NCBI GenBank assembly: GCA_051362555.1
Contig: CM120641.1
Coordinates: 22,568,001-22,632,000, forward strand
From: Lingula anatina
Taxonomy: Eukaryota; Animalia; Brachiopoda
DNA: 64,000 nucleotides
Reading direction: 5' to 3'
The notes below the pieces were generated by a model. That model ran no database searches, was not told the DNA's origin, and saw only the letters and a list, made by a program, of their open reading frames with translations. Shown one piece after another: positions 40,865 through 63,573 of the stretch. A program made the position numbers and the translations under genes. The first letter of the stretch is position 1; every line of letters begins with the position of its first letter.

Positions 40865-43854
40865 ATGGACGTAAATTGGAAAACGACGGAAACAGCAGGT
40901 GAATGGTTTGCGAAACAAGATAAGGACGATTTAAGGAAACAATTTTCGGATAACGGGTATGTGGTAAGTTTGACTTATATGAAGTACATTCACAGATTGA
41001 GCGGGCGAACAAATTGTATTGGACGCTGTTTGAAAAGAAAAAGAATAACATTTAAGCAAAAGACTACATTCGTCTTCCACACTCTAAACCTCAACACATT
41101 TTAATTTTGTACTTTTCCACATATACATGCATTTTCAACTTTATATTGTGAGCTTCATCTGTCACTGAATGTTTGTTTATATCTTATTTATTTATTCATT
41201 TATTATATCTTGTACAATCAGGTAGTACACAACCTGTTGGACAACGATTCTCTAGAAATCTACCAAGAGATATACGATAAGCTTCTTAGTGGAGAGATAG
41301 ATGCCAGTAAACATAGACACGACTTGGGATCTCACGGTAAAGCTGTATATGACCTCATTTCGTTTGCGGCAATGATATGTCCTTGTCGCCTTCGGCGCAT
41401 TTCTTATATTAGATGAATTACTCGTTGGTTACGAATACAAAAGAATGTTTAATAACAGGGAAAAGTAGATTAATAACAAGCCGAATCATAATTGCACGCC
41501 TTATATCACAGTCGATTGTCGATTATTCATTTATTTATTATTATTATTTCTTTGTAAAACAGTTGACTCCACGTAACTTGACACCTTATTACTCGAATTG
41601 ATTATTTTTTTTTTGGATTTTTTTCACCTTCAGATGAAGTTGAAAATAATGCAAGCATCGCCCAACTGGTCTTTTACGTTTACATTGTTTTTCCTGTGCC
41701 TTGTGTTTGTAGTGAAAAAAAATTATGATGATAAAAACATCGCTTTTAAGGTTAAACATTAACTAGAATCTTTGCGTAACTCTTGGACATAATAACGTAA
41801 TTTTGTCCATGCGTAACTCAAACAAACTCTCTGGCGTTCAAGTTTCTTACGCGGACTCTACTTCATAATTTTCCAGTCAAAAGGAGTCACTAGCTCCAAA
41901 TAGATAAATACATAAATAAATAGTAATAATAATAATAATAATAATAAATATTATTATACATACATTTTCAGAAAAGCGGAAGGTGATTGACCAGGAGAAC
42001 GTGTGCCAGATCATGTGGCCGAGTGTGTATTTGCCAGGGTTGGCGCAGGGCCCGCTGCACCAGAGAACCAAGGCCATAGCTAACGTGATCATTGGGGAGG
42101 ACGCCGAGTTCGACTTCGATATGTTGATTGCAAAGGTGGACTTGACTTTTTTGGAAATTTTTTCTAAGTTTCATTACTTACTTACAGTGGCTGTCAATTT
42201 TGGTCATTTTGTTGGACTGATGTGTTTCAAACTAACAAACTAAAATGATAATATTAATTTATGCCAAATGAATTATAAAAGGTATACAATGCGCATTAGA
42301 ACTAAATAAATTTCTTAAATTGATTTTTTGAGAAATTGCAACAGTTTTTTCCTTTATAACCAAGTATAGTCACCCTGAGCTTCAGAGCTAACTTGACACT
42401 AACCTATTCACTGTAGCCTATCTTCATCGTGTCAAGTAACTTGACACGATGAAGATAGGCTACAGTGAAGAGGTTAGTGTCAAGTTAGCTCTGAAGCTCA
42501 GGGTGAGTATAGTTTACCCTATTCAAAACTGTTGAAAAAGATTAAGATTTGTAAACCTGCTTCTAAGTTTTAAGTTTGTAATTTTTTGGTCACCCACCAG
42601 ATGAAAACTGGTAAAATTCACTGGTGATTTTAAAATTTTTAAAACTTGGTATTTAGAAATGGGTATTTCTTTGAAAGGTTTAACTTCGTGATTAAAAGAA
42701 ATACGTTGAAATTGCCAGGGAAATTGAAAAAAAATTTGCTCTAAAAGTCTTACACAAATCATTTTGCGCAATCAATAAGACCATGCATACATTTCAGTTG
42801 TTCGTCCTAGAATACTTTGACAGTGCACTGGATGAATAAGTTTGGCATATTTCATAATTTCTGTATGTTTATATCCATTTAGTCTGTTTTCCGTATAGAG
42901 CCCGCACACAGAGACGGGAACCCCGTGGCACCAGGACGAGTCCTACTGGCCCGACATGCCGGACAAAAGGGCCGTGTCCTTCTGGTGTGCCATGGACGAC
43001 GCCACGGTGGAAAACGGCTGCATGTGGTTCGTGTCGGGATCCCACAAGAGGCCACTGAGAACACACCGCCCGGTTAAAGTGGGACACCATATAAGGATGA
43101 CCGACGACTGCAGCGAGGTAGGCGTGCACCATGAATATCGGAATGAAGCCCATGCAGGCTATTGGCCGACACCGTTTTCAGCATGTCTTGCAATTATAAT
43201 TTCAAAGCATGCAATGCTCTTTACACCTTTATAGATCAAAATGTAAAAAACATCCTGGAAAGTTTTGAATTTCTTTTTATCACCAAGGTGCACCTTATCC
43301 AAAAACTGATTTGAAAGTAGCAACCCGTAAAACCATTTTCGTGCTCTTAATACTTTCGGGTCTCCATAACTGCTGCGAGAAACGTGATCTATAAACTCGT
43401 TTTCGAGCTAAAAAAATCTTATTTTAAATGTCACCGGTAAATTTTACAAAGAATAAAAAAATCAAAGAGCTCTTACAGATTGTAATTTTGATTTTTTTTT
43501 TCTTTTTGCGTTAAGGTCTAGCGTTCATTGCGCGACTTTTATCACCTATAACTGAAAACTCAAAATGGTAAACCTGATATACCATTTCTACCCTGTGAAT
43601 TTCTTCGACTCAAAAGCGTATTCCACATTATTAATCACATCTTTCAGGCAGAGGGCCAACCGCAGCCCATCCCTGCCGGATCTTGTACAGGGCATCACGG
43701 GAGGACGCTTCACTACACCCGTGGGAACTCCACCGACAGGTGGCGCAGGGCGTTCATCGTCAACTACAGGCCGAAAGACATGGTAGCGTGGGAGAGAGAA
43801 CATAATTTTGACCACGGCAAAGAGGTGGGTTCAGCGGTGCTTGCAACAACTTAA
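40865..43854 (+). CDS. PhyH-family 2-oxoglutarate/Fe(II) dioxygenase (phytanoyl-CoA dioxygenase domain), ~267 aa
   Basis: Exons 40865-40963, 41222-41336, 41972-42135, 42899-43117 and 43648-43854 join in frame (804 nt). QFSDNGYVVV, TPWHQDESYW (HxD), WCAMDDATVENGCMWFVSGSH, TLHYTRGNSTDRWRRA (distal His and 2OG-binding Arg). Confidence 0.88.
42371..42505. mobile_element. 135-bp foldback MITE with 8-bp TSD (hAT- or P-like)
   Basis: Near-perfect palindrome CACCCTGAGCTTCAGAGC...GCTCTGAAGCTCAGGGTG, flanked by AGTATAGT at 42363-42370 and 42506-42513. Confidence 0.85.
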
Positions 43855-44860: not shown

Positions 44861-46898
44861 CTATAACCCGAGAGATTTTCTGACTGTGCGTCGTGCTATT
44901 TCCTCAAACTCAGTTTTGTTTTCCCTCCACGTTTTTGCAGCATCAACATTTGCAGCACTTTCATCATTGGGCTCTGAAACAAATACACCAATTATTTTAT
45001 GTACAAGTCATCTAGATAATTTTACAAAGATGACAAATTTTGATAAAAATCTGACTGCCTTTTGAATTAATGTATGAAGAATAAGCATTGTCATGTGTGC
45101 ACCCCTGCATCTTTATTATATATTTCATTCCTGTGGCCATCCCATCTGGTATTGCGTGTCTAAATCTTATAAACTGTGCCCAGCCATTAACCCCTGTTAC
45201 AGCGTGAACAAATTACAGCACGATCTTCTCACTGACAAGAGGACCTACATACCTGCCAGCATACTGACAACTGACAGCAGTATCTTCTCCACACTCTGCA
45301 CTGGGCTCCACCTCTCAGCACTGGTTTCATAGCCCATGGGATCATCCCCTGGGGCATGTAATATTGATATACACACCCTGCCATCTGGATATACTATACA
45401 GAATGAAACAGCTTGGGATATTATATTAGATATCAACAGGATACATTCTGTGATACAATAGAAATCAATATATAAATCAGATTTTCATTAAAAGTTAAAG
45501 CCTCAATTTAGGATTACATTTCACATGGTTGTAACAATGTGTTTGGGGGAATCTGAAAACAAGTTACTTGTAAAACACCTAAACTTACTATTTGGATGAA
45601 AGAGGTCACAAGTGAACTTCATTTTTGGTGGGCTTAGAGGATAATCTGGTGGAAATATCAATCTTGCTGGAAATATTCCATCTTCAAAACATGTCCCCTC
45701 TGGACCACTGAAAAAAAGTGCTTAGCTCTAAATTTAGATTTGATGTCATTATATTTCTGTAATCGATACTGAATTACTTGGTACAAAAATAATCAAAATG
45801 TTTAAGACAGGAACATTTTTGGTAAGTAAAAGGCATGTCAATAGAACCAACTACAACACAGTTGTTTTAATTGCTTCCAATTCATTAAAATGTTTTGTAG
45901 TGTTCTCAAATTCTACACTAATCTATTTTGATTTCACTGCAATACATATTGACTTTATAGCAAGAAAAAATCATTCACTAGCAGTTATATTAATTATTTT
46001 TAGATAATTTAAATATTTTTCTTAATCTGGGCACGTACAGTATAGTAGATACAAAAAAAAAAAAAAGGAAAAAAAAAAGAGCAACAGTTTGAAATGTACA
46101 CCATAGTGCTAACAAATCCAAGATTTTTTGACTAAATTCCAACTATTGTCTCACGTTATAAGTGCCTCCCACTCAAAGAAATTTTCTTCATTTATTGGGC
46201 CAGCCACAATACCTTCTGGTGGGTTAAGCGTCAACTCTGAATAAAAGTAACATAGAAAAATAACAACATGAGAGAAAATTGATCACTTTTCAAAGTTTTG
46301 ACCAAATCATCATAATTTCCTTAGTGAAGAAAAATTAAGACCTTTTTCAGTTTGAGTGTTAAATCTTAGTGATGCTGGTATGTTTTGAGATGTTCCACCA
46401 CCAAAACTATGCTACAGAGATCTTGCTTAACTAGCTTTCATTAATTCTCCACAAACTTGTTCCCTGCTACTTATAAGTATCTAGCTAAGTTAATTAATTA
46501 ATTCATTGGGCATGTCTTGCATAGAGGTGTCATATGGGTGACTCTAGTCTTGTCAATCTCTCAAAAAATTGGATCTTCTCATTCTGAATGTAACAAACCT
46601 TAAGATAAATGAAAACGTCAATAAAAGGTTGAAATTCAGACTATAAACCCTTCAAACTACTGAAGCTTCACCAATCAAACTAATGGACCTTTGAACAAAT
46701 GAACCTTTGGACCAATCAAGGAAGTCTATCTTTGGAATATCGAGACGCACCCTCTGTCGCAGGATACATGATACGTAACGGTAAAGCAATGAAAAGTGCG
46801 ATCAGGCGAAAAATGAATGTAAATTAACATGCTACTCGAAATTAGTCACTCTCACGTTTATATTCGGCCATCAGCCTTTTCAAAGCTGAGCCTGCCAT
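44861..46898 (-). CDS. UBE2G2: Ubiquitin-conjugating enzyme E2 G2 (Ubc7), 165 aa
   Basis: Exons 46856-46898, 46155-46236, 45589-45707, 45253-45393 and 44861-44973 (498 nt): [90 protein letters not shown]. Confidence 0.96.
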
Positions 46899-47509
46899 GC
46901 CAAACAAACAAACAGGCTGTCAGCTGTCACAGTAATTATTAGCGACAGCTTCCAAATCCTGCTTCGGTGCTTCCAGTGTTTTGGTACGACACACAGACAG
47001 ACTCAACTTCTCTTGTTAGGTCGAAGAAGATTGGTCCATTTTGACGGTACTTACTTTTTCGCCAATCACATCGAGTAAGACAATTTTTTTTCTTGTCGCG
47101 TGCACACCGGCACAAATTCATCTTTGTTCGTGAGATTTTTTGCAAAAATCAGCAATTTGTTAATGGAATTTCTGACTGATGGACATGGATGCTTGGTGTA
47201 TGCCGCGGATTAGCTAAACTGGATTGACGTTTATTGCTTTGTTCATTGCAATCATATACAGATTTGGACTCGGAGAGTATGTGTACAGTATTCAGTTCAC
47301 TTTATCGTCGTTGATATTCGTAAACCCGTCGGAATCACAAAAGGGAATGGGGTCTTCATCATCCTAGGCCAAAGGCAGCTGTTCTTCAGCCCCAGGAAAA
47401 CCATTGTATTTTCTTGACTTGGTCGTGAATCCGTGGGAAACAAATTTTATGATAACAAGGCTGACTATAGACAATTATTGTGTATTAATTGTCCTATTAT
47501 AATAAAACA
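46899..47509. promoter_or_regulatory. Likely bidirectional promoter between UBE2G2 and the upstream TOP2 first exon
   Basis: Start codons only ~610 bp apart, head-to-head; CpG-richer than the flanks; CCAAT at 47062-47066. Confidence 0.6.
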
Positions 47510-50500
47510 ATGGCAGATGGAAGTGGGAAATTGCAATGGGTGGTAAGTGACTTTAATTTATTTATTTCTTTTTGTTTTCAACTTCTCAATTGATCGACCT
47601 TCACCTTTGGATATAGTGCGCCAAACGTCATCACTGAAGTTGTCACGTGGTAGCAATTCTCTGTTTTGATTGGATAGATTGGCAAGGGCGCTGTAAATTG
47701 AAAATTATCAGACACGGTGCTGGCCCTGTCGTTCGATTATTCCCCTTTTCCCAAATAAACAACGACAATGGCGTCTGAAGGCCCATTAAAGGTGAGCATT
47801 AAAACTAAGTTTCAAATGTGTTTGAAGTCAAACTAGTGACTGGTGAAAATTAATTTGATTTTAAACGTTCAACCTGACCCCATCAACATGACATCTAGTG
47901 AGCAACGATTTTTTTGTTTGATCTGTAGGATTCTTGAGTTTGACCGGCAGTTATAACAGAATTATTGAAGATACTATTTAAGTTAATTGTCTTGAGTTTA
48001 GTTTTCACTTTCATGAACCAAATGGTCTTAAATTACTTTTGTGAAAAAAAACTCAAAAATGGATCATACTAGTGGAATATCACAGTTCTTAATATATGAA
48101 ATTCATGCACTAGCACTCCTATTGACAATCTGATATATACTAGCTGTGCTAATATGTTAAAACAGCGTGGATTTGAAAATTGTCAATAGTAGTGTTAATG
48201 CATGAATTTTATGCTATAGTAAGTTCTTCATTGCTTGCATTTTTGCATTATGTTAATCATGATATTAAAAATGATACATGGACGCTTGAACAAGTTGGGT
48301 TAAAAGCCCATTTTAAAACTGTTGACAGGTCTCATTACTGTCTCCTCTAATTTCTTTCCTTCGTTGCCACTGGTCCACTGTCAATCTTTATCTTTTCAGA
48401 CTCTCTTTGATAACATGAATGCCAAATCTGAGGCTAAGGAAGAGAAAAATGAGAAGAAAAAATCCAAGCCCAAACCAAAGGCTGAAGATGCAGCAGATAT
48501 GCCCCACCTGCCTAAAACCCCTCCGAAAGGAGAGGGAAAAGGCAAGAAGCGCATGTCTGTGGAGAGAATCTACCAGAAGAAGTCTCAGCTAGAGCATATC
48601 TTGTTACGTCCTGATACTTATATTGGTTCTGTGGAAAAAGTCACCCAGGTAGGGTTTGTAGGAATAAAAAAACACATAAAAAATAAAAGTTAATGAATGT
48701 AATTTGTAAAAATTGAAAATTGCATGAAAAGTAAATTTTGTCTGTAGCAGAAAATTTATTTTTAAAATTTTCATGGTGACCAGCTTTATTTTTTTTTTAC
48801 TCCAGTCAAATACAGATTAATTGTTTTATGTAGCCTTTCCTTAAAGACAGTCTCAGCGCGTTAAACCCTTAAAATAGCACGAAAATGAATTTTCCTGGAA
48901 AACTCACCAATTTCCCCATAATGACCAAGGTATATCCTATCCAAAACCGTTCAGAAAATGAAGCTACCTAATACCGTTTTTAAGTTCCATTAAATAATAA
49001 AAGACGACTCGTCTTAAATACTCAGCTACCACCTCACAGTACGGCTTCAGAACGCGCAATTTCTCGCTAAGTCTCGCGGTTTACTATGAATGAAGTACTA
49101 CGGCTGAGACCCGGATGTTACTATTTGGCGCCAAAACAGCAAACATGGCTCAGACGCGCGTCAAGTCTGAACAGGAGAGCGACAAAAGGGGGCGAAAGAA
49201 AATAGCCACTCCAGTTCGAAAGATACGAAAGAAAATTAGAGACAGACGAAGAAGCACTCAGACTGTGTATGTTGGGAGGGAGGTGGGGCGTTGGAGGACA
49301 CTTAAAGCTGAGTTAGGACTCACATACGAGGCAATGGCGAAACTACTCCTCGACACGTGAGTATGCGCTTCACAGGTCTCAAGTGTGTCTGATTATCATA
49401 TTATCCTGTTCACAATAAATGAAAATATTTGTGCTCATACAAAGTTGGTTACGTGTATAAGAGCGTTTTGGGCTTTACTTTTTCTGTTTTTGATCGGTAC
49501 ATGTACCGAAAAGATGGACAGGCGGCACTTACATGTCTGACAAGTTTCGCTGTGTAGTCGTGACGTCTATCTCATTCTGACTGAAGCCTGCTGTGATTGG
49601 TCGTAAGCGTGGGAAAATCGAGGTCGTGACCTTGAGCCGGAAGTACTTCTGGCTGTGCTCCGAAATCATGATAAATAGTTTTCGTTTTCTAATTTTTTAT
49701 TCTAGTTGTCTTAACAGGACTTTTGTGACCCAGACTTATTCATATAATAATAAACAATCTCCCAAAACACAAATCTGATCAAAGTTTTACATAGAACCTG
49801 CTTCTATACATTAATCTAACCCACTGAGTTGTCCTTTAACTACTCTGAATTGTCAGTACTATGAATTTTACATGGTTTTATTTTTGCAGCCAATGTGGGT
49901 TATTAACGAGGAGGCGGACAGAATGATTCAGAGAGATCTCACCTTTGTACCCGGGTTGTACAAGATATTTGATGAGATTTTAGGTAAGCAACTGCTGTCA
50001 AGAATTGTAAGGGGTAGTCAATACAAAAGATGTCAAATGTCCCGTAGTATACATAAAGTTACCTATTTTATAAATGTAATAATATGATGTATTTCACACT
50101 TTTTCTTGTAATTATTTTTTAACTTCATTAGTTATTGATGTTAAAGATAACGAGACCCATTAGTTACATTCTTGTCTCTGTTTCTTTAGTGAATGCTGCA
50201 GATAATAAACAGCGAGATCCTAAAATGACAACCATCAAGATCGATATCGATAGGTTAGTATAAGTTCAACAGTTTAAGTTAATCATCACCCTCTGTTACT
50301 TCAATCCCATTTAGAGCCCATATCAGTGACAACAATTGGGCATAACCTTATTTCAGAGGTAGTCTTGCCAGGCTGTGCCTTACACTTCTTCTGATTCTTT
50401 TTCTTTTGTTTTATGCAAAATATGTGCATAGTACAATGACAAGATATGCCTGATAATTATGTATTTGGATTTCTGTTTCATCCACAGATGTATTTGCTGA

Positions 50501-53500
50501 GGGTTTGAGAGATTGAGATTTTTTAACAACCCTAACTTTAGCGCGTCTTATAAAATAACCCAGCAGCTAGAGATTTATGGATGATGGATATTACAATGTG
50601 TCAGGGTTGACTTTCTATCCAACATTTCTCTTCATTTTTTAAGACTTGAAGAAAAATAGAATGAAAGCTTGATTGATTCTATTGCTCAACTGTGTCCAAT
50701 CTCTCATTATATTTAGTGAGAACAACCGTGTCAAGATCTGGAACAATGGTAAGGGGATCCCTGTGATAGAGCACAAGACAGAGAAGGTGATGGTCCCAAC
50801 ACTGATCTTTGGGCACCTGCTTACCTCCAGTAACTACAATGATGAGGAGCAGAAAGTCACAGGTATGCTGGGAATTCTGAATGCAGGGTAACCAGCAAAT
50901 GTATTTACTTTATAGGTTTGTTATCTGTATTTGAACTGGTGTAATGTTTTCTGTTGAAGAAGGTGAATTATTCAAATCTACACCTTCCTACTGCTTTGTT
51001 ATGTATGATTTGCACTTTCTGTTATAATTTTAATAACCTAGCATCCACTTCAAATATATGCACATACTTTTCTATTATTCATTGTTCTTTTTGCCACACA
51101 TCAGAATCAAAGACAATTTTAATTTACTTTCAGGTGGTCGTAATGGATATGGCGCCAAACTTTGCAACATCTTCAGCAACAAGTTTGTTGTAGAAACTTC
51201 CTCCAAAGATGAGGGCCATGCTTTTAAACAGGTGATTTTTTAGCCCATAAATTATTGACGAATAAGTAACCTTAATGGGTGATACTAATCCATCCTTTAT
51301 TCAGTGATTTTACATGATGCGATCCATCTTGTAGCTCTAAGGATGTCTGTAATCCTCTATAAAATTCCTAATTTCTGTTGAAATAGTTTTTCCCCACAAC
51401 AAAATTGTTAATTTCCGCCATAATTGATTTAATGCACATAGCGTACAGTGTGACATCATGATATACCAAAAAAACCTCAACAAAATGATGTAACTGCATA
51501 TTTGCAGACCTGGACCCACAACATGGGAAAAGCTACAGAGGCAAAGATCACCCCGTGTGCGTCTGAGGACTATACCTGCATTACATTCGAGCCAGATCTG
51601 GCCAAGTTCAAGATGGATTCCCTGGACAAGGACATCGTGGACCTGTTCTCTAGGAGAGCCTATGACATAGCTGCCTCCACCAAGGGGGTCAAGGTGTTCC
51701 TCAATGGGAAGAAACTGCCTGTATGTTCATTTCTGAAATCTTTACTTTTTTGACACTTCAGGAACACTTTTCTACCCTAAAGAACCCCTAAGAACCTATT
51801 TTAGTTCTTTTGAATGGTGCAGAACAGAATTGCCTGCTACATGTTGAGGCATAGCCAGATATTTGAATCGCCATCTTTAGATCTATCAGTTACTAAATAA
51901 ATGATTAAGTACAAGTCAATGGAATTTACAGATTATTTTGATCAAAGGTAACTTAGTTTCCCGTTTTTCCAGATTAACAGCTTCCGAAGTTATGTGGACC
52001 TGTTCCTGAAGGACAAGTTTGATGACAATGGGCAGCCACTGAATGTTGTCCATGAGGTCATCAACCCACGCTGGGAGGTGGCCGTCACCCTCAGTGACTC
52101 TGGCTTCAAACAGGCCAGCTTTGTCAACAGTATTGCCACCACCAAGGTAAGGGGGAAGTAATCCACATTCCACATTTAGATCAGATAGGTATATCTTGTT
52201 TGATGGGATTATAAAATATTTTTCCCAGTGCATATGCATGTATTATATTAATACCTGTGAAGCAAATTAATGTTTTTGAGACGTGTCTTGGAAGATAAAT
52301 TAGTTATAATTTATAAATATATATATGATGTGCTAGAAGACAAAGAATACTCAAGTAAAATGCATTCAACCTGACTAGAAAATCTTCTATAATCCCAGGG
52401 AGGGCGGCATATTGACTACTTTGTGGACCAAGTAGTGAACAAACTCGCAGATGTAGTGAAGAAGAAACAAGGGAAAGGGGGGATGGCCGTAAAACCTTTC
52501 CAGGTAGGTTGCCTGTTTTGAAATATTTTTGAGAAATAAAATGTTTTGAAGACCCAAAAATATTTTCTTTTATTACCCAGTGTTATTTCACAAATACAGT
52601 AGTTACAGATACAATAACTGTGAAAAGAAAAAATGGGACAATAAATTGTTTTGTAACTTGATTGTTTATAATTTTTGAGATAATATTAAAATGAAGGCAG
52701 GTTTTTATTTGCTTTAAAATTTAGAAAATGTTTCTGGAAGCTTAATACTAACTAAATACTGTCTTAATATTTCAGATCAAAAACCACATGTGGGTCTTTG
52801 TGAACTGTCTCATCGTAAATCCAACCTTTGACTCTCAAACCAAAGAAAACATGACCCTGCAGGCCAAGAGCTTTGGTTCTAAATGTGAGCTCAATGATAA
52901 ATTCATACAACAGGTAAGACATGTGGAACTCCACCCCTAGGTGCAGGTACACAGATTTACGCTGGTGTAAATTCCTCATATGATCATATTCCAGTCAGTT
53001 TGAAACATAGTAGCAGTAGTGAATAAGACGGCTTTCACATGCAAAATGGTTTCATATTATAATTTAACAATGCCATTTACATCGAAAGCGTTTGAATGAT
53101 TTCTTTTAATAGTTTCGGCAACCACTTTCAGGTGTCCAAATGTGGTATTGTGGAAAGCATCTTGTCCTGGGTGAAGTTCAAGACCCAGACTCAACTGAAC
53201 AAGAAGTGCCATGCCTCTAAGCATTCCAAGCTGAAAGGAATTCCGAAGCTGGATGATGCCAACGATGCAGGTAACATGGAAACTTGTTAGTCTTGCACAA
53301 CTAGAGTTTTTTTTTTTTTTTTTTTTAATATATATATATATAAAAGACTTTGTAGAGATGAAAAGATGAAACATGGTAATAACAGAATTATTTTAAACAT
53401 TTGAAGGACAATATTTAACTTTGTTCACGTTTATCATGATCATGATATGTATCCCAAATAGGAACAAAGAACTCAGCCCATTGTACACTGATCCTGACTG

Positions 53501-56500
53501 AGGGAGACTCTGCCAAGACCCTGGCAGTAGCTGGACTCAGTGTGATCGGTAGAGACCAATATGGCGTCTTCCCACTGCGTGGTAAAGTTCTCAACGTGAG
53601 GGAGGCCACACACAAACAGGTAAGAAGGAAGGACTAACATGCTAGTTTGAGTTCCCATTCCTTGTGATAAATGATTGAGTAAAACCAGTAAAATAGGTCT
53701 ACAGGGAAGAGTAGAAAATAGAGCAGTTGTTTTAGGAAAAAAGACCAAAGGAGAATATTTTTATTGTGCTGTTTTGAGTCTGTCAGTTATTCTTACAATT
53801 ATAGGACTTTTTTGGTAAGAGTTTATAAGTGCATCAAAGTCTAAAGGTAACAGTAAAAGTAGAATCAAAGTGCTTCCTTTCTTTTTTAGATCATGGAAAA
53901 TGCTGAGATCAACAACCTGATCAAGATCGTTGGCCTACAGTACAAGAACAAGTATGACAGCCCAGAGACACTGAAGACCCTGCGTTATGGCAAGATCATG
54001 ATCATGACTGATCAGGATCAGGACGGCTCACACATTAAGGGTCTACTGGTCAACTTTATACACCACAACTGGCCGTCCCTACTCAAACACAACTTTGTTG
54101 AGGAGTTTATAACTCCCATTGTTAAGGTCAGTCTGGGAATTCACTGTAGTGCTCTATACTGATATTTAGTCTTCATGATAAAATCTAATGATACACTCTG
54201 TTGAATGATGCGTGAAAATTTAAAGAAGTCTGCCTTAGTTTTATTTTGGATAGCTTATGTATATGTTCAATAGTATTTTGTAGTCTGATAAGTAATAGTT
54301 AAAATTCAAGAAATACATTTAACCATCATTGTAGGTTTACTCATGGGAAGAAAATTCTCTTTAATATGTATGATTATCAGATATTTTGTTGGTTGGATAC
54401 CAGTAGAAAATTTGTCAGTTTTGTTTTTACATTGAAACCTGTTTACAGTCCCTTTATGACATCCCTTTGTCATTGCCCTATAAAGGACATATTTGCCTCA
54501 ATGTGCATTAAAAACAGCAATAGTTAACACAAATTCTTTAAACTCTTGCAGGTGACCAAAGGAAAGGAGGAGAAGGCTTTCTACAGCTTGCCAGAGTTTG
54601 AGGAGTGGAAAGAAGCAACACCTAACTGGCACACTTATAGATGCAAATACTACAAAGGTTTTAATTTTTTTGTTGACATGTCTTTAACATTTCCCAATTC
54701 AGCCTAGATCCTAGGCTTTTTACTAGATCACATTATTGTGTATCCTTGACTCAAAGTGAATACAGTCAGAATTATAAACATAGAGCATAAACTTCTTAAC
54801 AACTAAGAGGCCAACATATTGTTAAATCTTTGCCCTATTTCACCAGAATGAACATAGAATTTAAACTTTTTTCCTTGATGTTTTTCTGAATTAAGCACCC
54901 TGCAAACCTGGTTGTAAGGTCAACCAGCTATTCTTTCTACCCTTTTTTTTTTTTTTCTTAAAACCAAAAAAATTATATCGGAACCCTGTTATCTATTTTG
55001 ATAAGGTGTTTCTTTATCTATGTCCACCAAGGTTTGGGTACCAGCACCTCCAAAGAGGCAAAGGAGTACTTTTCTGATATGGAAAGGCACAGGATTCCTT
55101 TCAAGTACAGCGGACCTTCTGATGATGCATCTATCACACTGGTTCGTTTCCTCTAAGAATTTCTTCACTTTTAGCTGACCATGTTAGATTAAATGACTAC
55201 AATGCGGGTGGGAGGAGTTTTGTAATAGAATGTTTCACATTTGAATGGGTTTGTTCATGAAAGGTCTGAAAACATGCATCTGTGGAACTAGGGCATATTT
55301 TGACCAAAGTAGTTAATTTTGTATTCAAGGCTTTCTCCAAGAAGAAGATAGAAGAGAGGAAACAGTGGCTATCTAACTTCATGGAAGATCGTAAAAGACG
55401 TGCTGAGTTAGGCCTGCCAGATGTGAGTATGCTAATATACAAAAGCACTAAACGGTTTCATATTTGTTCCCATATATTTTAATAAGTTGCCAGGGAAAAA
55501 CAAAGGTTTTTCTCTTGTGTTTAATAAGAAAAATTTTTCTCATTCCCTCTTCTTTTCTCTAGGTTTACCTGTATGGCAAGGACACCAGACACATAACCTA
55601 CAATGACTTTATCAACAAGGAATTGATCCTGTTCAGTAACATGGACAATGAAAGATCCATCCCAAGTCTTATTGACGGTGAGTAGGGTGATGCGAGATAT
55701 ATTGCCACATGCTAGAGGATTGGAGAAAAAAATGGGTAGCAGTAGTAGCAAATTTGAAAAGGCAGTGGTCTGTGCCCAAAAAATAAGAAAACCTAAATTG
55801 CCAGGATCTCAGAATCTACTGGCCCAAATCAGAAAAAATATCAGAAAAGGAGACCAAAATTACGACATTTTACAGACCAGGCTTCGCTTTTATTGGCATG
55901 GGACCAGTGCTAACTGTGACATAAATGGAAAGGTCATCTCTAAAAGAAATTCCTTCTTTGTATTGGCCAATGCTTCAGAAGAGAGAGAATGGATTTTTAA
56001 AAAATGGAAAAACAAAAAAATATACTGACCTTTATTATTTGTTTGTGTTTTGAACTTGCAGGTTTCAAGCCAGGCCAAAGAAAAGTCATGTTTACCTGCT
56101 TGAAGCGTAACCTGCAGAAGGAAATCAAGGTGGCCCAGCTAGCTGGTTCTGTCTCTGAGATGTCTGCCTATCATCATGGTGAGATGTCTTTGATGGGCAC
56201 CATCATCAACTTGGCCCAGAACTTTGTAGGTAGCAACAATCTCAACCTGCTGCAGCCCATTGGTCAGTTTGGTACTCGTCTCCATGGAGGCAAGGATGCT
56301 GCCAGCCCCCGTTATATTTTCACAGCATTGAGGTTAGTTGAAATGTGGATTAAAATGGTATCCCACTATTATCGTGCTTCATAGTTAAGTAAATTTTTCA
56401 TCCTGAAGCAAACTTAAAAGAGTGTTATCTACTACGACAAATCCTCAACCCAACCTATCCTAACCACCACCTTTGGATATATATGAAATGGCAATTTCTG

Positions 56501-59500
56501 TCCTGAATTCCATTTACATCATGAGCAAAGTTTATTTTCAGATTTGTAAATTTGAAAATCACCCCCCTTCCACTGTACTTTCAGCCCCCTGGCCAGAGCA
56601 GTATTCAATGCACACGATGAACCTCTGTACAAGTATTGTTATGATGACAACCTGAAGGTGGAGCCACAGTTCTATGTCCCCATCCTGCCCATGGTGCTGG
56701 TGAATGGTGCCGAGGGGATAGGTACTGGGTGGAGCACCAAGATCCCCAATTATGATATCCGTGAAATAGTGAGCAACCTGAAGAGGCTGATAGATGGGGA
56801 GGAACCCAGGCCAATGGTATGGTATAAGTCTAGAGTTGAAAGTCTTCCCAATTTATCTGGATATTTGAAATGAAGTAGTCTGGGTCTTTTGTTTTACAAC
56901 ATCTGCTGTGATGTTATGCTGTGATAATATGTAGTAGTTTTCAAACTGTTTTTCAATTCTGTGTTCAGATCCCTGCCTTCAAGAACTTCATAGGAACAAT
57001 AGAGGACCACAGCGGGGAGACCATCTGCCATGGAGAGGTGTCCATCCTGGATGATGAAACCATCGAAATAACCGAGCTGCCCATCCGAGTGTGGACGCAG
57101 AACTACAAGGAGTCTGTCCTGGAGCCCATGCTGCAGGGCACTGACAAAACTCCAGCAGTGATCAGGTATGGTATAAGTCACAAATGTTGTTGCTTAAGTT
57201 GCTCTTTGAAGTAATATATATTTAGAAGTGTTTTTGGAATTCTTTGTTTTGTTTTTTTCCTTACCATCTGCAAATTTTATTCTTTTTAAATTTAGTATTA
57301 CATTTTAATGGAATGATCAAGTCAGATTTAAATAATGCTTTTGTGTATTTTAGTGACTACAAGGAGTACCATACTGATGTGACAGTGAAATTTGTAGTCA
57401 AGATGACTGCTGAAAAACTGGCACAAGCTGAACAAGTAGGACTCCACAAGTTCTTCAAACTCCAGACCTCGATATCTTCTAACATGGTGAGTTTTGGCAT
57501 CTAACTTATAAAAACCTCTATAAATCAAGGAAGGGATCTTTCCTTACAATGTGCATAGGGCGAGGGGGGTGTTTCTTCATCTTTCTGAAATTGTAGTGCA
57601 AGTGTCCTTCATGATGACCTGAAATTTGTCTTAACTGACCAAGTTTTCTGTCTTTGATAGGTTTTGTTTGATAAGAATGGCTGCTTGAAGAAGTATGACC
57701 GTGCAGAAGATGTTCTCAGAGAGTTCTACGATGTCCGTATGGAGTACTACATCAAGAGGAAGGACTATCTGGAGGGCCTGTTGTCTGCAGAAGCCTTGAA
57801 GCTGGAGAACCAGGCACGCTTCATCTGTGAGAAGATTGATGGAGAAATCTCAATCGGTAAGGTTACACTGGTGTGGACATTTCATGTACATCTACTGGCA
57901 ATCAGCTTATTAACTAGATTTTCACATGTACATTTTTTTTTTAGAACAGTATTAATAAGTTTCAGTAATTGAAAGTCTTTGCAAGGTGTTCAGTTTATTC
58001 TAAATGTATGTGAAATAATATATGAAGTATACTGTTCATCTCCACAGAGAACAAACCCAAGAAGGAGTTGATTCAGCTTTTGGTGCGTAGAGGATACGAC
58101 TCTGATCCTCTCAAAGCTTGGCGGGAGGCACAGGACAAACTAGCAGTATGTTATCAGACTTGTCTTTTTGTTAAGCACTTACTTATTCACATGGCTGTGA
58201 CGGCCCATGTGGAATATTATATTGTTTTTCAGCTTTCAGTCTTTGAATATATGGCTGGGAATAGACCAATTTTAAAGTGTAAAGCAATTTCATTATACCA
58301 GTGTAATAGACCAAGAATTTTGATACAGAGGCATCATTAAAGGAGTATATTATTAGAAAACAAATCTGGTGAATAATGCTATTTAGCATGATCTTTTTAT
58401 ACTTGTATAGACTTTTATTCATTGAATATTTATACAAATTTTTACAAAAGACAGATAAAGCAGTTGCTAAAAAAAGATTTTAAAATTGTTACATGTATAT
58501 GCAGATGACTGTTACATTCCAGGAGGCAGACAGAGGGGGTGTTGAGACAGAGAGTGATGATGAGCAGAGCGAGGCCTCCAGCACAGCAGGGGGCCCAGAC
58601 TTCAACTACATCCTCAACCTGCCACTGTGGAGTCTGTCCAAGGAGAAGAAGGAAGAGCTGCTGAAGCAGAGAGACGCCAAGCAGGAGGAACTGCGAGCAC
58701 TCCGCAGAAAAACTCCAAGCTGTCTGTGGAAGGATGATCTGGAGAAGTTTTTGGAGGAGTTGGAAGTATGGATCTCTTTGTCAAGTTAACTTTTTTTCCA
58801 TCATTTAATGAGAAATCTTACATAATTTTTATTAGTACTGAAGGGTTCGTTGTTTTCTGTGTCTTGTCACAATACAGAGTCAAATTCAATGCCTACTTTA
58901 GAATGTACTTTTTTCTTTGATTAGTATTAAAAAACAGAAATTGTTGCAGCAAATTTTGAAATGAATGGCAGATTTGTGCAAGCAAACTCATAATTTGGGG
59001 TGAATCCTCCTTTATGTAGAGTGAAAAACCAGATAGATGCTGGAATCTAACAAATGCATTTTGAGGCCACTCATCAACTGTCATACTGAGTTACAAAGTT
59101 GTTAGTTCTCTACCTTGGTATGCATGTGTTGTATTATTCTTTACTTTTCTCGCCTTGTAGAAAGTTGAGCAGAAGGAAAGAGAGGATGCTGCGGCAGGTG
59201 TCAACCCTGGTGTCGTCAAGACGGCCAAGGGCAGAGCTAAACCAAAGAAGATCCACATCGAAGAGACGAAACCTTCTCCCATGGGACGCAGGGTGGAGCC
59301 CAGGATTGACCAAGCCTTGAGGTCAAAGCTTGAAAGAAAGAAGGGAAAAGGAGGAAAGGTAGTCATGGATCCATTCATTTATGCAGAAAAAAAGATATCC
59401 TAGCTATATTTTCTCCTTTTGTTGGAAATGGGCAAAATGGTCCCTTGAAAGAATTAGAAAAATAATTTTTTGTGCTAGGGTATCTTATTTGAAGTTGACA

Positions 59501-62500
59501 TTCTCAGTTACCAAATTAAAATGTTTGTAAATATGTTTTTTCTATCATTAATAATGCTATGAAAGTGTACTGAAATCTAGCATATGCAGTGGTTCCCATT
59601 TAAAAGATTATGATATGATAATAATTTCCATTTACAGCTAAATAAGGCATGATATTCCCTTATGTCAGTCCACAGCTGATGTAATTATTCGATGATTTAC
59701 TAAATTCAAACCATTTTCTCATTTTTTACAAAAAGGGTGATGACCCAACACAGAAAAGGCTGTTTGACTTCCTGGATGCAGAGGATGGCAATGACATAAA
59801 ATCTGTGGCGGCATCAGAGACAACATCTAAAGCAGATGATGAATTTGATGAACCCAAATCTCTTGCTGACCGCCTGGGAAAGAAGATTGGCAGTTCTCAA
59901 GGTAGCTCTACTGCTGGTAACTTACCTACTTTGATCATTAAACGGGGTTATCACTGTAAAAGTCCAATGCTGTACCATAGTGCTATGCATGGGCTATCTG
60001 GAACTGCTTGTACCCTTCATGGGCTATCTGGAACTGCCTGTATCCCACTGGCCAATGACCACAGGACTGCTGAGAAAAGGGGGGTTTACTGTATAAAAAC
60101 CACGCCATACATTACTAATGACTTACAGTATAAATGTCTCCCAACATTCACTCCACGAGGACTTGGTTTCACTTCTCTAGACTTGAAACATACTAGGCTA
60201 GTGTTGTCAGAACAGTCCAATCAGTTACAAACTGCGAGAGATCTGTCATTCTGTTCAAGTCGTTTTATAGTCCAAGCTGATATTAACATTTCAGCAGTTA
60301 TCAGACAAAGAGAGGTTTACAAATGTCTTCGTGTTGTTATGAAAAGGCTGCTTAAGTGAATGGAAATGTGCCAAATTTGCTATAAACAGTTTTAAAAGAA
60401 CAATATGTAGTCCTGTTGTTCTTTTTCTTGGCAGTTTGTTTCTTGGCTTTCCTCCTCCCCAGAAAAAGAAGCAAATGGTACATTAAAAAAAAATTTATCT
60501 AACAGAAACATTTATTGGTACATAAGATTTATTAAACAATCACAATAATGCCATTGTTCCACAGCTCCCAAAGCCAAGAGACAAGCCAAGCCCAAGAAGT
60601 CTCCTGCCAAAGGGAAGAAGGGGAAGAAGAAGAAGGGGCCCTGGGAGAGCAGTGATGATGAGAGTGATGTCAACATGGAGGAAAGTGATAATGACGATTT
60701 TGATTTTGGACCAAGGGAGAGAGCAGAACCCAGGAGAGCAACAGGTAATGAGTAGCCTTAGTTGGATTGTTGTTATTGCCATCACTGTGCACTTTGTTAA
60801 GATTTTACCTTTTAAACACTGAATGCAAAACTGTGTTACTTTTAATCTCAAACCTGAAAGAATGATTCAGATGCCTTAAATACAGCTTAAACTTTAAAAA
60901 CCAGCCAGATTGGCTTATTTTCTAGCAGTAATAACTTTTTTCCTAAAATTTTCCACTAGCTGCCTTGCTAGCTTATTGAAGATTGCTAAATATTATACTT
61001 CACTACTTCATATTCAACTTGTTTTCATTGTAGCAAAAGCCACTTTCAAATTCAATGATGATTCTGAGGACGAGGTGGCCAAAATTGATGACGACTCTGA
61101 TCAGAGCTTCAAATTTGATGATGAAGAAGATGAACCTAAACCCAAGAAAGTAAAGTAGGTTGAAAACAGTGCTGTGTTCATATTTAATGCTGAAATTAAT
61201 TGACCATCATGTATATCCATCAAGCTGCTGAATGTGATAATGTGGGATTTAGTGTATAAAGGCCATCCCTGTTTTTTCAGACCTCCCAAAAAATCTGTGA
61301 GGATTGCTATGTCTGATGATGAAGATGAAGAATTCAATGATGTTCAGGAATCTCAAGGTAAAGCTATTGTTATAATTACCCCTGCCAAGGAGGATATGTG
61401 TTCACCCCTGTTTGTCTGTCATCAACATAACTCAACAAGTTATGGACCAATTTTGATGAAATTTTCAGGAACTGTCAGAAGTGGGCCAAGGGAGAGATGA
61501 TTAGTTTTTGGTGATAATCCAGATCAATAATCAACCAATTATCAATAATAATAAAAAAAAAATGCTGCCTATGCAAAGGTCTGCGCTCTTGGAGTGCTTT
61601 TCTAGTTAGATCATGCAGTGTATTTAGCACTTGAATTCTGTTTTCTCACGGCATCTTAAAGGCTTTCTTGGGGGATTTGTGGCTTCTTGTCATCTTTGAT
61701 TACATTGCTGTCACTTTTTTTAACAGAGATAAGTTGACAAAAGATAATATTTATAACTCGATAAAAGATCACATTCAATTCATAGTCTGTTGTTGATCCA
61801 AGTTATCTGTATTTTCAGAGGATAAAGTGATGGCCGTAATCAGTGACAGTGAAGATGAGCCCCTTGTAGTGGAGAAGGAACCTCCCAAACCCAAGGAGGC
61901 ACCAAAAAAGAAAACACTTGGGAAAAAGACTGTACCACTGGGAACAAAAGGTAAAGGTTTTAAGTGATTTCCTTTGTGAGTTTCACTAGTGCTTTGCTTT
62001 AACATATCATTTTCTTTGATGTGGTGTTTGAAGTTTGTACAACTTTTTTTTACCTTTTTATTCTCTTATTTTAATCTTAATTGCTATACAATAACAGCAC
62101 TACTAATAGGCATTCCGTGGCTTATGATTGAATGGCATGATTTGTATGTAATTGCAAAGCAAATTTAAAAAATAAGATGAGCTATTTCACAGGGTCTCGT
62201 TCTCCTGCAGATTCCAAGCAGCCCAGTATCTTTGCAAAACTGTCCACTATTCCCAAGTCTTCAGATGTAGATGTAGCCTCTGTCTCTAGTACTGCTAGCT
62301 CTGGGTTGTTTGGGGCCAGGAACTCACAGCTCTCTTCGGCTCCTTCTTCCTCTCAGAACTTGGATGACATCATAGAAATAGAGTCTATTTCTAGTGTGGC
62401 TAGCTCTGCCACTGCTGCCTGTCCTCCAGGAAAGAAAGAAAGTATGCATTTATTACATGATTAGTTATGATTAAAAAGAATTGTATATCTTTAGAAAATC

Positions 62501-63573
62501 TTGTGGTTGCTTGTCTTGATTATTTTTTTTCCTAAAGTATTTAATATGTTGTTTGCTGTGTTCTGTTGTGGTAGTAGAGGAAGATTTTTATGATAATTGC
62601 ACAATTTTGAGGCAAACAGATGGTTTGGTGTTGCTGTAATATTGCATCATTTTGCTAATATTAAAAAAAAAAAGTAGACTCGTGGAGTAAAGCTTGCTAT
62701 TGCTCCTGTTTCTGTGAGCAGCCTATGTGCAGTTCAATTACGCATCATAAGAAAAATATGATATTCTTTTTAGCAACAGAATTTTTGACTTTTAACAGTT
62801 AACTTAAAAAACTTCCATGTTTTTTTTTATTTTATTTTATTTTTTTTCAAATCTATCACTGGATTGACAACATCAGCTGGAATGAATTTTGAATTTGTAA
62901 TAGATTTTGAAAAAAAAGTAAAAAAAGAAACAACTTTTTAAAAGTTCAAGTGAGTTTATATAACTACAAGCAGTTAAGAAAGTTTCTTCTATCCAAAAGG
63001 AATGTTCTTTAGTCAGTAGCTTGAGAAGTAAACCAGCCAATATTCCATCTGCTTACATCATTGAATAGGACTGTAACAGAACTTTATATTCCCTTACTTC
63101 AACACATTTTTGTATTATTTTTTTTACAGAAGCCCCCAAGAAGTCCAAACCCAAGAAAAAGGCCACTTCGGATGGCGACAGTGAAGATGACATGCCAAAG
63201 AAACCCAAGAAGTCTGTAGCGGCCAAGAAGAGGCCCAAAAAGACTGTGAGCTCAGATGATTCTGCTGATGAGTTTTGTCCTAAGAAAAAGAAGTCAACAG
63301 CTGCAAAGGTAAATGAGTTGTTAAGCATTTTTCTCGGTTTCAATTTTCAGTCAGTGATACAAAAAGAACTTGTCATTGTGAATTTGTGACCCTAATTGAA
63401 CACTTTGCTCATAAACATGTCAACACCTTTATTTTTTTCAGAAAAAGAAAGTGGATAATGAAGATATGGAAGGAATGGACTTGAATAACATAATTCCAAA
63501 AGAAAGATCACAGAGAGCAAGGAAGGCTGTCACCTACAACTTTGATGATGACGATGATGATTCGGATTTCTAG
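47510..63573 (+). CDS. TOP2: DNA topoisomerase II, complete gene with two candidate first coding exons (47510-47542 and 47768-47791)
   Basis: Exon 48400-48648 SVERIYQKKSQLEHILLRPDTYIGS; VPGLYKIFDEIL; WNNGKGIP; GGRNGYGAKLCNIFS; TOPRIM LILTEGDSA, PLRGK, MTDQDQDGSHIKGL; catalytic AASPRYIFT (Tyr codon 56313-56315); PMVLVNGAEGIGTGW; charged CTD ending RARKAVTYNFDDDDDDSDF* (TAG 63571-63573). Confidence 0.96.
47618..47682 (+). promoter_or_regulatory. Cell-cycle-type promoter motifs upstream of the second TOP2 first exon
   Basis: E2F-like GCGCCAAA 47618-47625, E-box CACGTG 47644-47649, two inverted CCAAT boxes (GATTGG at ~47668 and ~47677). Confidence 0.55.
48845..49835 (+). mobile_element. Kolobok-like internally deleted element in a TOP2 intron, retaining a first-exon-like ORF
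   Basis: TTAA at 48841-48844 and 49836-49839; imperfect TIRs AGACAGTCTCAG / rc AGGACAACTCAG; basic ORF MAQTRVKS..RWRTLKAELGLTYEAMAKLLLDT followed by a GTGAGT donor at ~49357. Confidence 0.6.
61375..61607 (+). mobile_element. Non-autonomous Helentron/Helitron-associated (HINE-like) element
   Basis: Starts ATTACCCCTGCCAAGGAGGATATGTGTTCACCCCTGTTTGTCTGT and ends AGGTCTGCGCTCTTGGAGTGCTTTTCTAGTT with a short subterminal stem-loop (GCGCTC/GAGTGC), the layout I recall for this widespread family. Confidence 0.6.

Follow-up and report, generated by a model that had tools for sequence, protein, structure and literature searches.

Two alternative first exons in the TOP2 gene of Lingula anatina, with ends resembling those of vertebrate TOP2B and TOP2A

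The TOP2 locus and its two first exons

The window analysed is a stretch of 64,000 nucleotides from the brachiopod Lingula anatina (assembly GCA_051362555.1, contig CM120641.1, positions 22,568,001 to 22,632,000 of the forward strand), in which a single topoisomerase gene, TOP2, possessed two alternative first exons, 1a and 1b, with ends similar to those of vertebrate TOP2B and TOP2A, respectively. Exon 2 shared 99% identity with L. anatina TOP2, and the L. anatina protein, on which the Pfam domains PF02518, PF00204, PF01751, PF16898 and PF00521 were found, aligned exon by exon to nt 48388–63552. The locus encodes a eukaryotic type IIA topoisomerase, a single chain that comprises GHKL ATPase, transducer, TOPRIM and breakage-reunion domains. 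In the phylogenetic tree, Lingula TOP2 stood outside the clade formed by TOP2A and TOP2B (100/100) and was placed among spiralians; by this placement it is a pre-duplication gene, orthologous to neither TOP2A nor TOP2B, whatever the "alpha-like" names in databases say. The parts of the gene that concern its 5′ end are as follows.

47115..47509, plus strand: 5′ leader of exon 1a, about 390 nt, start approximate (RNA depth)
47510..47542, plus strand: coding exon 1a, MADGSGKLQWV (11 codons), phase 0 donor GTAAGT, TOP2B-type end (75 junction reads)
47710..47791, plus strand: exon 1b, short leader (start approximate) and coding part, TOP2A-type end (86 junction reads)
48400..48648, plus strand: shared TOP2 exon 2, from TLFDNM as far as where the ATPase domain begins (sequence, RNA reads)
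48649..63573, plus strand: remaining TOP2 gene through the stop codon at 63573 (alignment of the L. anatina protein)

The coding part of exon 1b (nt 47768–47791) specified MASEGPLK in 8 codons and ended in the phase 0 donor GTGAGC, and both first exons were compatible with the acceptor at 48400, behind which exon 2 began with TLFDNMNAK. The resulting enzymes differ only by 11 versus 8 N-terminal residues. These positions and phases were exactly those given in a first-pass annotation made from the letters alone, which had also proposed to look for the two junctions in RNA-seq data; a single correction to it concerns the animal, a brachiopod and not the mollusc that it implied. In raw reads from 8 of the 9 listed Lingula runs (6–30% of each run), both junctions were found, that from 47542 to 48400 (1a) in 6 of the 8 runs (X1 33, X2 22, X4 0, X5 0, X6 2, X7 5, X8 7 and X9 6 reads) and that from 47791 to 48400 (1b) in 5 of the 8 (X1 49, X2 29, X4 0, X5 0, X6 0, X7 2, X8 4 and X9 2 reads). 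X6 and X9 each had four further loose reads that led from 47542 into exon-2-like letters. Among the reads of the 8 runs there was no junction from 1a to 1b and, in one set of these runs, no depth between the two exons, which indicates that 1a and 1b are alternative starts. RNA depth began at about 47115–47130 for 1a and 47705–47740 for 1b, with a gap between them; these onsets of depth put the approximate starts about 600 bp apart. Thus, TOP2 is here an alternative-first-exon gene, with two 5′ exons that are each joined to exon 2 and, in these reads, not to each other.

Since in-frame cassettes of the type ATG..GT[AG]AG can arise by chance, it is the reads, and not the sequence, that prove exons 1a and 1b; a chance in-frame ATG..GTAAG cassette at nt 48198–48218 in the same intron, serving as a local control, had no junction in the reads. 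Both first exons were spliced in study P3 too. The reads of that study, mostly 90–99% alike to the window, showed many differences from it in the 1a leader (nt 47120–47509) and therefore come from a diverged population or a related species.

The 1a leader contained 8 upstream ATGs, compared with 7.9 expected from its composition, and the 1b leader contained none. No in-frame N-terminal extension of exon 1a was found. Mitochondrial targeting by either Lingula form was considered and rejected, as the frame is closed by a stop 19 codons upstream of 1a and 4 codons upstream of 1b. In many other invertebrate TOP2 models, either first exon is preceded by a long N-terminal stretch that abounds in R, S, L and F and resembles a mitochondrial-targeting sequence.

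The two N-termini in invertebrates, vertebrates and sea urchins

Ahead of a common TLFD-like stretch, the N-termini of invertebrate TOP2 proteins fell into two classes, LxW[VTK] and [GST]PL[KR]. MASEGPLK of Haliotis asinina was identical to Lingula 1b, and GSGKLTWV of Ptychodera corresponded to GSGKLQWV of Lingula 1a. The tally for 60 sets of named invertebrate species was 20 with both ends, 13 with 1a only, 14 with 1b only and 13 with neither, and the one-class sets are no proof of loss, because most had a single protein in view. Within the expanded clusters, two oysters and the nemertean Lineus had 1b only, Holothuria had 1a only, and Styela and Limulus had neither; the four tunicates and five ecdysozoans examined likewise had neither pattern. 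All of the 18 invertebrate pairs tested, drawn from the 20 sets with both ends and coming from six molluscs, seven echinoderms, two hemichordates and three amphioxus assemblies, consisted of 1a and 1b forms with 100% identical cores, that is, isoforms of one gene. The first-pass annotation had named two outcomes that would speak against it, namely that only one exon is ever spliced or that the endings are not conserved in other invertebrates; neither occurred, both ends being found in molluscs, echinoderms, hemichordates and amphioxus. As seen from the Lingula reads and the 18 same-gene pairs in four phyla, the unduplicated gene of the outgroups makes both forms. The two-start arrangement would be as old as the ancestor that spiralians last shared with deuterostomes, an age bounded only in this way because no cnidarian or sponge TOP2 was identified among the homologs retrieved. 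In heterodont clams, the tryptophan of the 1a end has been lost in some (SMKASTLF, SMKSSALF) and kept in a relative (SMKWASLF).

These pairs also bear on the notion that assembly or annotation has fused two ancient paralogs with one N-terminus each, or that 1b is an annotation artefact. The L. anatina database record, which gives the 1a form alone, would agree with it, but 1a and 1b lie within 300 bp of one window and are joined to one exon 2, and invertebrate TOP2 genes branch outside the clade of TOP2A and TOP2B. Refuted by the Lingula junction reads and by the isoform pairs with identical cores, this notion is almost certainly wrong.

Vertebrate TOP2A and TOP2B belong to the same family, but they are two genes that appear to have kept one start each, whereas Lingula has one gene with both starts. 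TOP2A has been linked to proliferating cells and TOP2B is present in most tissues (PMC6073266). At the exon junction, human TOP2B, with the N-terminus GALTWVTLFDQNNAAK (PDB 7yq8), reads GALTWV-TLFDQ, similar to the 1a end, and human TOP2A, beginning SPLQPVNENM (PDB 6zy5), reads SPLQ-PVNEN, similar to the 1b end; both sequences had been given correctly in the first-pass annotation. The junction lies after Val23 in human TOP2B (PMC9592559) and is marked at the same place by sturgeon and paddlefish TOP2B isoforms without TLFDK, and in TOP2A by a duck model that skips ten residues after PLR and by read-through models. Of the two ends, vertebrate TOP2B keeps that of 1a and TOP2A that of 1b, at this same junction.

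L[TN]WV was present in 97 of 106 vertebrate TOP2B rows, a count biased by the profile with which the rows were drawn, since it held WVTLFD; the others were five salamander rows (MM[SP]P-TLFD) and four truncated or odd models. The same profile also held three 1b sequences, and no vertebrate PL[KR]-TLFD appeared in the best 120 of 4555. Sampling of TOP2A was nearly all sauropsid, with PL[KR] in 24 of 26 sauropsid rows, 2 being partial and 4 more partial rows excluded. The best 120 of 1643, 120 of 4555 and 150 of 1832 (50% clusters) included no cyclostome TOP2 and no TOP2A named as that of a fish, shark or amphibian; paralogs of cyclostomes are described as separate branches (PMC10081982) and may supply a third replicate. 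In the salamanders Ambystoma, Pleurodeles and Lissotriton, TOP2B also has another first exon, which is very short (MM[SP]P) and precedes TLFD, so that the split in vertebrates is not entirely clean; this exon may be a decayed 1b or a new exon. A protein first taken as fish TOP2B grouped with annelids in the tree; a search with its residues 1–56 matched only itself.

With profiles made from invertebrate ends only, the 1a scores were +12 to +17 bits for TOP2B ends and -10 to -21 bits for TOP2A ends, and the 1b scores were -15 to -21 and +2 to +13.5 bits, respectively, placing TOP2B with 1a and TOP2A with 1b with zero overlap. It is very unlikely that the likeness of TOP2A exon 1 to exon 1b is a matter of chance or convergence, with a new start in TOP2A and only 1a inherited. 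The match covers only four residues, exon 2 of TOP2A no longer begins with TLFD (PVNEN, PLDEN, PLLEN), the short salamander exon indicates that new starts can arise, and fish and shark TOP2A are absent by name from the sample. However, the match lies at the same junction, random 5-mers reach TOP2A-level 1b scores at 2e-5 to 2e-3, ESPLR of amphioxus compares with SSPLR of emu and with VEPLR of a protein at the base of the TOP2A clade (MEVEPLR-PLLEN, support 0.94), and the split was repeated in sea urchins.

Two TOP2 genes on separate contigs, one annotated only with LKWV and one with GPLK, were present in both Lytechinus variegatus and L. pictus, both genes being labelled alpha-like in databases (XP_041476375 and XP_041462217 types); the cores of the two genes were 79% identical in L. 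variegatus. In a tree of 24 rows and 1180 columns (LG+G4), the urchin LKWV gene was sister to the GPLK genes of Lytechinus, Strongylocentrotus and Diadema (support 99/98), a 54-row tree grouped them alike, and forcing the LKWV gene together with vertebrate TOP2B was rejected (approximately unbiased test, p 1e-52). No LKWV gene of Strongylocentrotus or Diadema was present among the sequences retrieved. By these trees, sea urchins duplicated TOP2 independently of vertebrates, and the two ends appear to have been split between the copies. One end per duplicate was the pattern in the protein records of both vertebrates and Lytechinus.

Promoters, expression and C-terminal motifs

The regions upstream of the two starts contained the following features.

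46856..46984, minus strand: UBE2G2 exon 1 (ATG at 46898–46896), head-to-head with TOP2 (read depth, best PDB match)
46985..47110, no strand: divergent promoter gap of UBE2G2 and TOP2 1a, right edge approximate (no depth at 47035–47101 in 3 of 4 runs)
47618..47682, plus strand: candidate exon 1b promoter (consensus matches only)

UBE2G2 was the best PDB match of a minus-strand open reading frame fragment (E 2e-17), another UBE2G2 fragment being without PDB match, and its reads stopped at 46983–46984, with loose read ends at 46856. The head-to-head arrangement of 1a with UBE2G2 is borne out by this match and these read ends. The gap between the two, roughly 130–150 bp, contained CCAAT boxes at 47030 (minus) and 47062 (plus) and no E2F match. 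In the candidate 1b promoter there were an E2F-like TTTGGCGC (nt 47618–47625, minus), TGACG at 47626 (minus), an E-box CACGTG at 47644 and inverted CCAAT boxes (ATTGG) at 47669 and 47678, the E2F and CCAAT consensus matches lying within about 100 bp of the 1b start. No cell-cycle genes homology region element (TT[CT]GAA, TTTAAA, CTTGAA or TAGGAA) was found in nt 46950–47800. Neither the E2F-like motif alone (4 seen, 2.05 expected) nor twin ATTGG alone (4 seen, 7.85 expected) was above chance; E2F with two CCAAT boxes occurred at a single place in the window, before 1b, and 20,000 local shuffles yielded the combination at a fraction of 0.0008, the motifs having been picked after being seen. Thus, the E2F-like motif and the twin inverted CCAAT boxes that had been likened to a TOP2A promoter are both present, but the twin boxes are not diagnostic, for the human TOP2A promoter has four inverted CCAAT boxes (PMC3763449) and human TOP2B is driven by two (PMC13213696). 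Because such boxes occur in both human promoters, the E2F site is the sole discriminating element.

Depth of 1a relative to UBE2G2 exon 1 varied more than 20-fold between runs, from about 0.07 (X4) to above 1 (X2, X6). The shared promoter gap therefore does not make 1a constant, and the idea that 1a is housekeeping-like by virtue of that gap was not upheld. Junction reads for 1a and 1b numbered 55:78 in study P1, 18:8 in P3 (Fisher p 0.010) and 2:0 in P2, and in three low-TOP2 runs of P2 1b was without depth, that of 1a being 0.4 to 7.5. These ratios fit 1b as a switchable start, in runs without tissue labels and with differing libraries. Indirect support for a proliferative 1b is given by its absence in the low-TOP2 runs, by the E2F site at 1b only and by the C-terminal motifs of the 1b copy described below. 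Coupling of 1b to proliferation, with 1a as the constitutive start, is plausible.

The same data can be read with the first exons ancient and partitioned but the ancestral contrast lying elsewhere, between germ line or oocyte and soma or in translational control by the 1a leader, the alpha/beta split in expression having arisen after duplication. This reading, which we regard as unlikely, would accommodate runs without tissue assignment, a 1a that rises with 1b and varies more than 20-fold relative to UBE2G2, CCAAT boxes ahead of both Lingula starts as well as in both human promoters, and a long 1a leader with upstream ATGs that 1b lacks. Against it, the number of these ATGs equals the chance expectation, the E2F site stands at 1b only, 1b is missing where TOP2 is low, and alpha-type C-terminal motifs were kept by the 1b copy in two independent duplications.

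These motifs resemble the boxes of PCNA-interacting proteins (PIP boxes), and two regions of the Lingula gene contain them.

59751..59774, plus strand: first PIP-box-like motif, QKRLFDFL, at the position of the alpha-type motif M1 (mapped L. anatina protein; resemblance only)
62211..62441, plus strand: second PIP-box-like motif, QPSIFAKL, on a phase 1-1 exon of 231 nt (mapped L. anatina protein; resemblance only)

The likeness to PCNA-binding boxes is based on the PIP-box consensus Q-x-x-[ILM]-x-x-aromatic, and chicken TOP2A, unlike TOP2B, was reportedly found by Niimi in 2001 to bind PCNA via its C-terminal region. By its length and phase, the exon with the second motif could be skipped in frame, and the matching exon of molluscs (scallop, abalone, oysters, mussels) is a cassette of 42–47 residues with QPS[IV] by which isoform pairs differ. 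With rows shorter than 1480 residues excluded, every full-length row of sauropsid TOP2A (20 of 20) and every row of the urchin GPLK genes (8 of 8) had both motifs, QPS[IV] and the K[KR]Q[STA]TLxFKP type, and both were absent from vertebrate TOP2B (0 of 92 rows) and the urchin LKWV gene (0 of 3 rows); amphioxus and the early-branching protein of the TOP2A clade also had both. In vertebrates and sea urchins, the copy keeping 1b retains two putative PIP-box-like motifs without counterpart in the 1a copy.

Elsewhere in the window, a gene of the PhyH (phytanoyl-CoA dioxygenase) family was found at nt 42899–43854 (plus strand), tail-to-tail with UBE2G2. Intron 2 of TOP2 contained a repeat of about 1 kb (nt 48841–49839), with reads on both strands and loose ends at each edge, in which neither a Pfam match nor clear terminal repeats were found. 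It included the palindrome TTTGGCGCCAAA, a double E2F-like site, at nt 49124–49135, 3′ of which a short ATG-initiated frame extended from 49146 to a donor-like GT.

Probable partition of the two starts after duplication

Probably, one gene with two spliced starts was partitioned by separate duplications in vertebrates and in sea urchins, the predicted cell-cycle start 1b passing to TOP2A and the predicted broad start 1a to TOP2B. In the ancestral gene, 1a would have been driven by a broad promoter lying upstream and 1b by a cell-cycle promoter within the first intron, the latter, to judge from its motifs, responding to E2F and NF-Y and adding enzyme in cycling cells over the supply from 1a. 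After duplication, each copy would lose one promoter-exon unit by complementary degeneration, so that both copies become needed, and the 1a-only copy, dispensable in S phase and mitosis, would then lose the replication-linked C-terminal motifs. The main functional units are likely to be the promoters and not the short peptides. More tentatively, and at somewhat less than even chances, the alpha/beta division of labour may have been pre-built in the early bilaterian gene, with a cell-cycle promoter and replication-linked C-terminal motifs on one side and a broad promoter on the other, and frozen by the two duplications, the sea urchins having gained a convergent, hitherto unrecognised TOP2A-/TOP2B-like pair.

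Several points weigh against partition of the promoters. The runs are untied to cycling or post-mitotic tissue, library and population differ by study, the reads are non-independent, and study P2 contributed only 2 junction reads; moreover, 1a is highest in the runs where 1b is highest and does not follow UBE2G2. Inverted CCAAT pairs are not alpha-specific, given those of human TOP2B and the two CCAAT boxes of the 1a gap. Loss of exons in the duplicates was judged from protein records instead of genomic DNA, and the second first exon of salamander TOP2B, the missing cyclostomes, the biased TOP2B rows and the sauropsid sampling of TOP2A, all described above, belong here as well. The C-terminal motif patterns were chosen post hoc and their correlation amounts to two duplication events. 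Human TOP2A has kept the first motif and lost the second, human TOP2B having neither, and two transcript contigs, one scallop-like and one mussel-like, join 1a with the second motif, so that the cassette does not strictly go with one first exon.

A further difficulty is that human N-terminal swaps had no isoform-specific effect on proliferation, the C-terminal regions being decisive (Linka 2007). Because only C-terminal swaps change isoform behaviour, the N-terminal peptides are to be seen as markers of their promoters rather than as the cause of the alpha/beta difference. Their conservation suggests, all the same, a role of their own. According to a doubtful alternative that is compatible with partition of the promoters, the peptides are the conserved units, each first exon completing with TLFD its own short linear motif that tunes the ATPase strap or partners. 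We take 1b and TLFD to form [ST]-P-x-[KR], a cyclin-dependent kinase-type site in many species, together with the cyclin-docking-like [KR]-T-L-F, and 1a to form a hydrophobic L-x-W-V-T-L-F. The ends are conserved from brachiopod to vertebrates, beyond the needs of a neutral start exon, and the N-terminal strap reduces ATP hydrolysis of human TOP2B and S4 of human TOP2A is phosphorylated (PMC9592559), both of which would agree with such motifs. Besides the result of the swaps, however, G stands instead of S/T before PLK in Lingula and in many molluscs and echinoderms, TOP2A has lost TLF, and K-T-L-F is also formed by some gastropod 1a ends.

Partition of isoforms between duplicates has known parallels. 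Fish mitf is said, in work of Altschmied from 2002, to have undergone subfunctionalisation by loss of alternative isoforms. In the fungal genes SKI7/HBS1 and PTC7, each duplicate of a two-form ancestral gene keeps one form, and the SKI7/HBS1 partition took place twice independently, as that of TOP2 apparently did in vertebrates and sea urchins; the SKI7/HBS1 forms, however, were proven functionally different, whereas those of TOP2 differ by few residues (PMC3597508). A human TOP2B splice variant with TLFDQ (Davies 1993, as reported in PMC9592559) uses the same junction after LTWV, but it is described there as an insertion from an alternative acceptor, whereas TLFD is here, by its presence in both invertebrate isoforms, the ancestral start of exon 2. 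No description of the two-first-exon arrangement of TOP2 was found in the full-text literature searched, the coverage of which did not include the main paper on animal TOP2 evolution. The arrangement is a real, expressed and deeply conserved feature and adds a fresh example to the known process by which isoforms are partitioned between duplicates; the split of the two TOP2 ends between sea-urchin copies is new here.

Why vertebrates keep two type IIA topoisomerases was called "enigmatic" (Linka 2007) and, in a 2018 review, an intriguing open question, other animals being treated in both as having one undifferentiated enzyme. Should the two promoters be older than the duplication, sea urchins, a standard embryo model, would offer with their TOP2 pair a natural replicate independent of vertebrates; the two C-terminal motifs kept with the 1b start are candidates for the alpha-specific function of the C-terminal region. 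Widely used cancer drugs are aimed at TOP2A and cause side effects through TOP2B, so that the distinction between the two is also of practical interest. If the promoters pre-date the duplication, the question of TOP2A and TOP2B would become testable in animals with a single gene.

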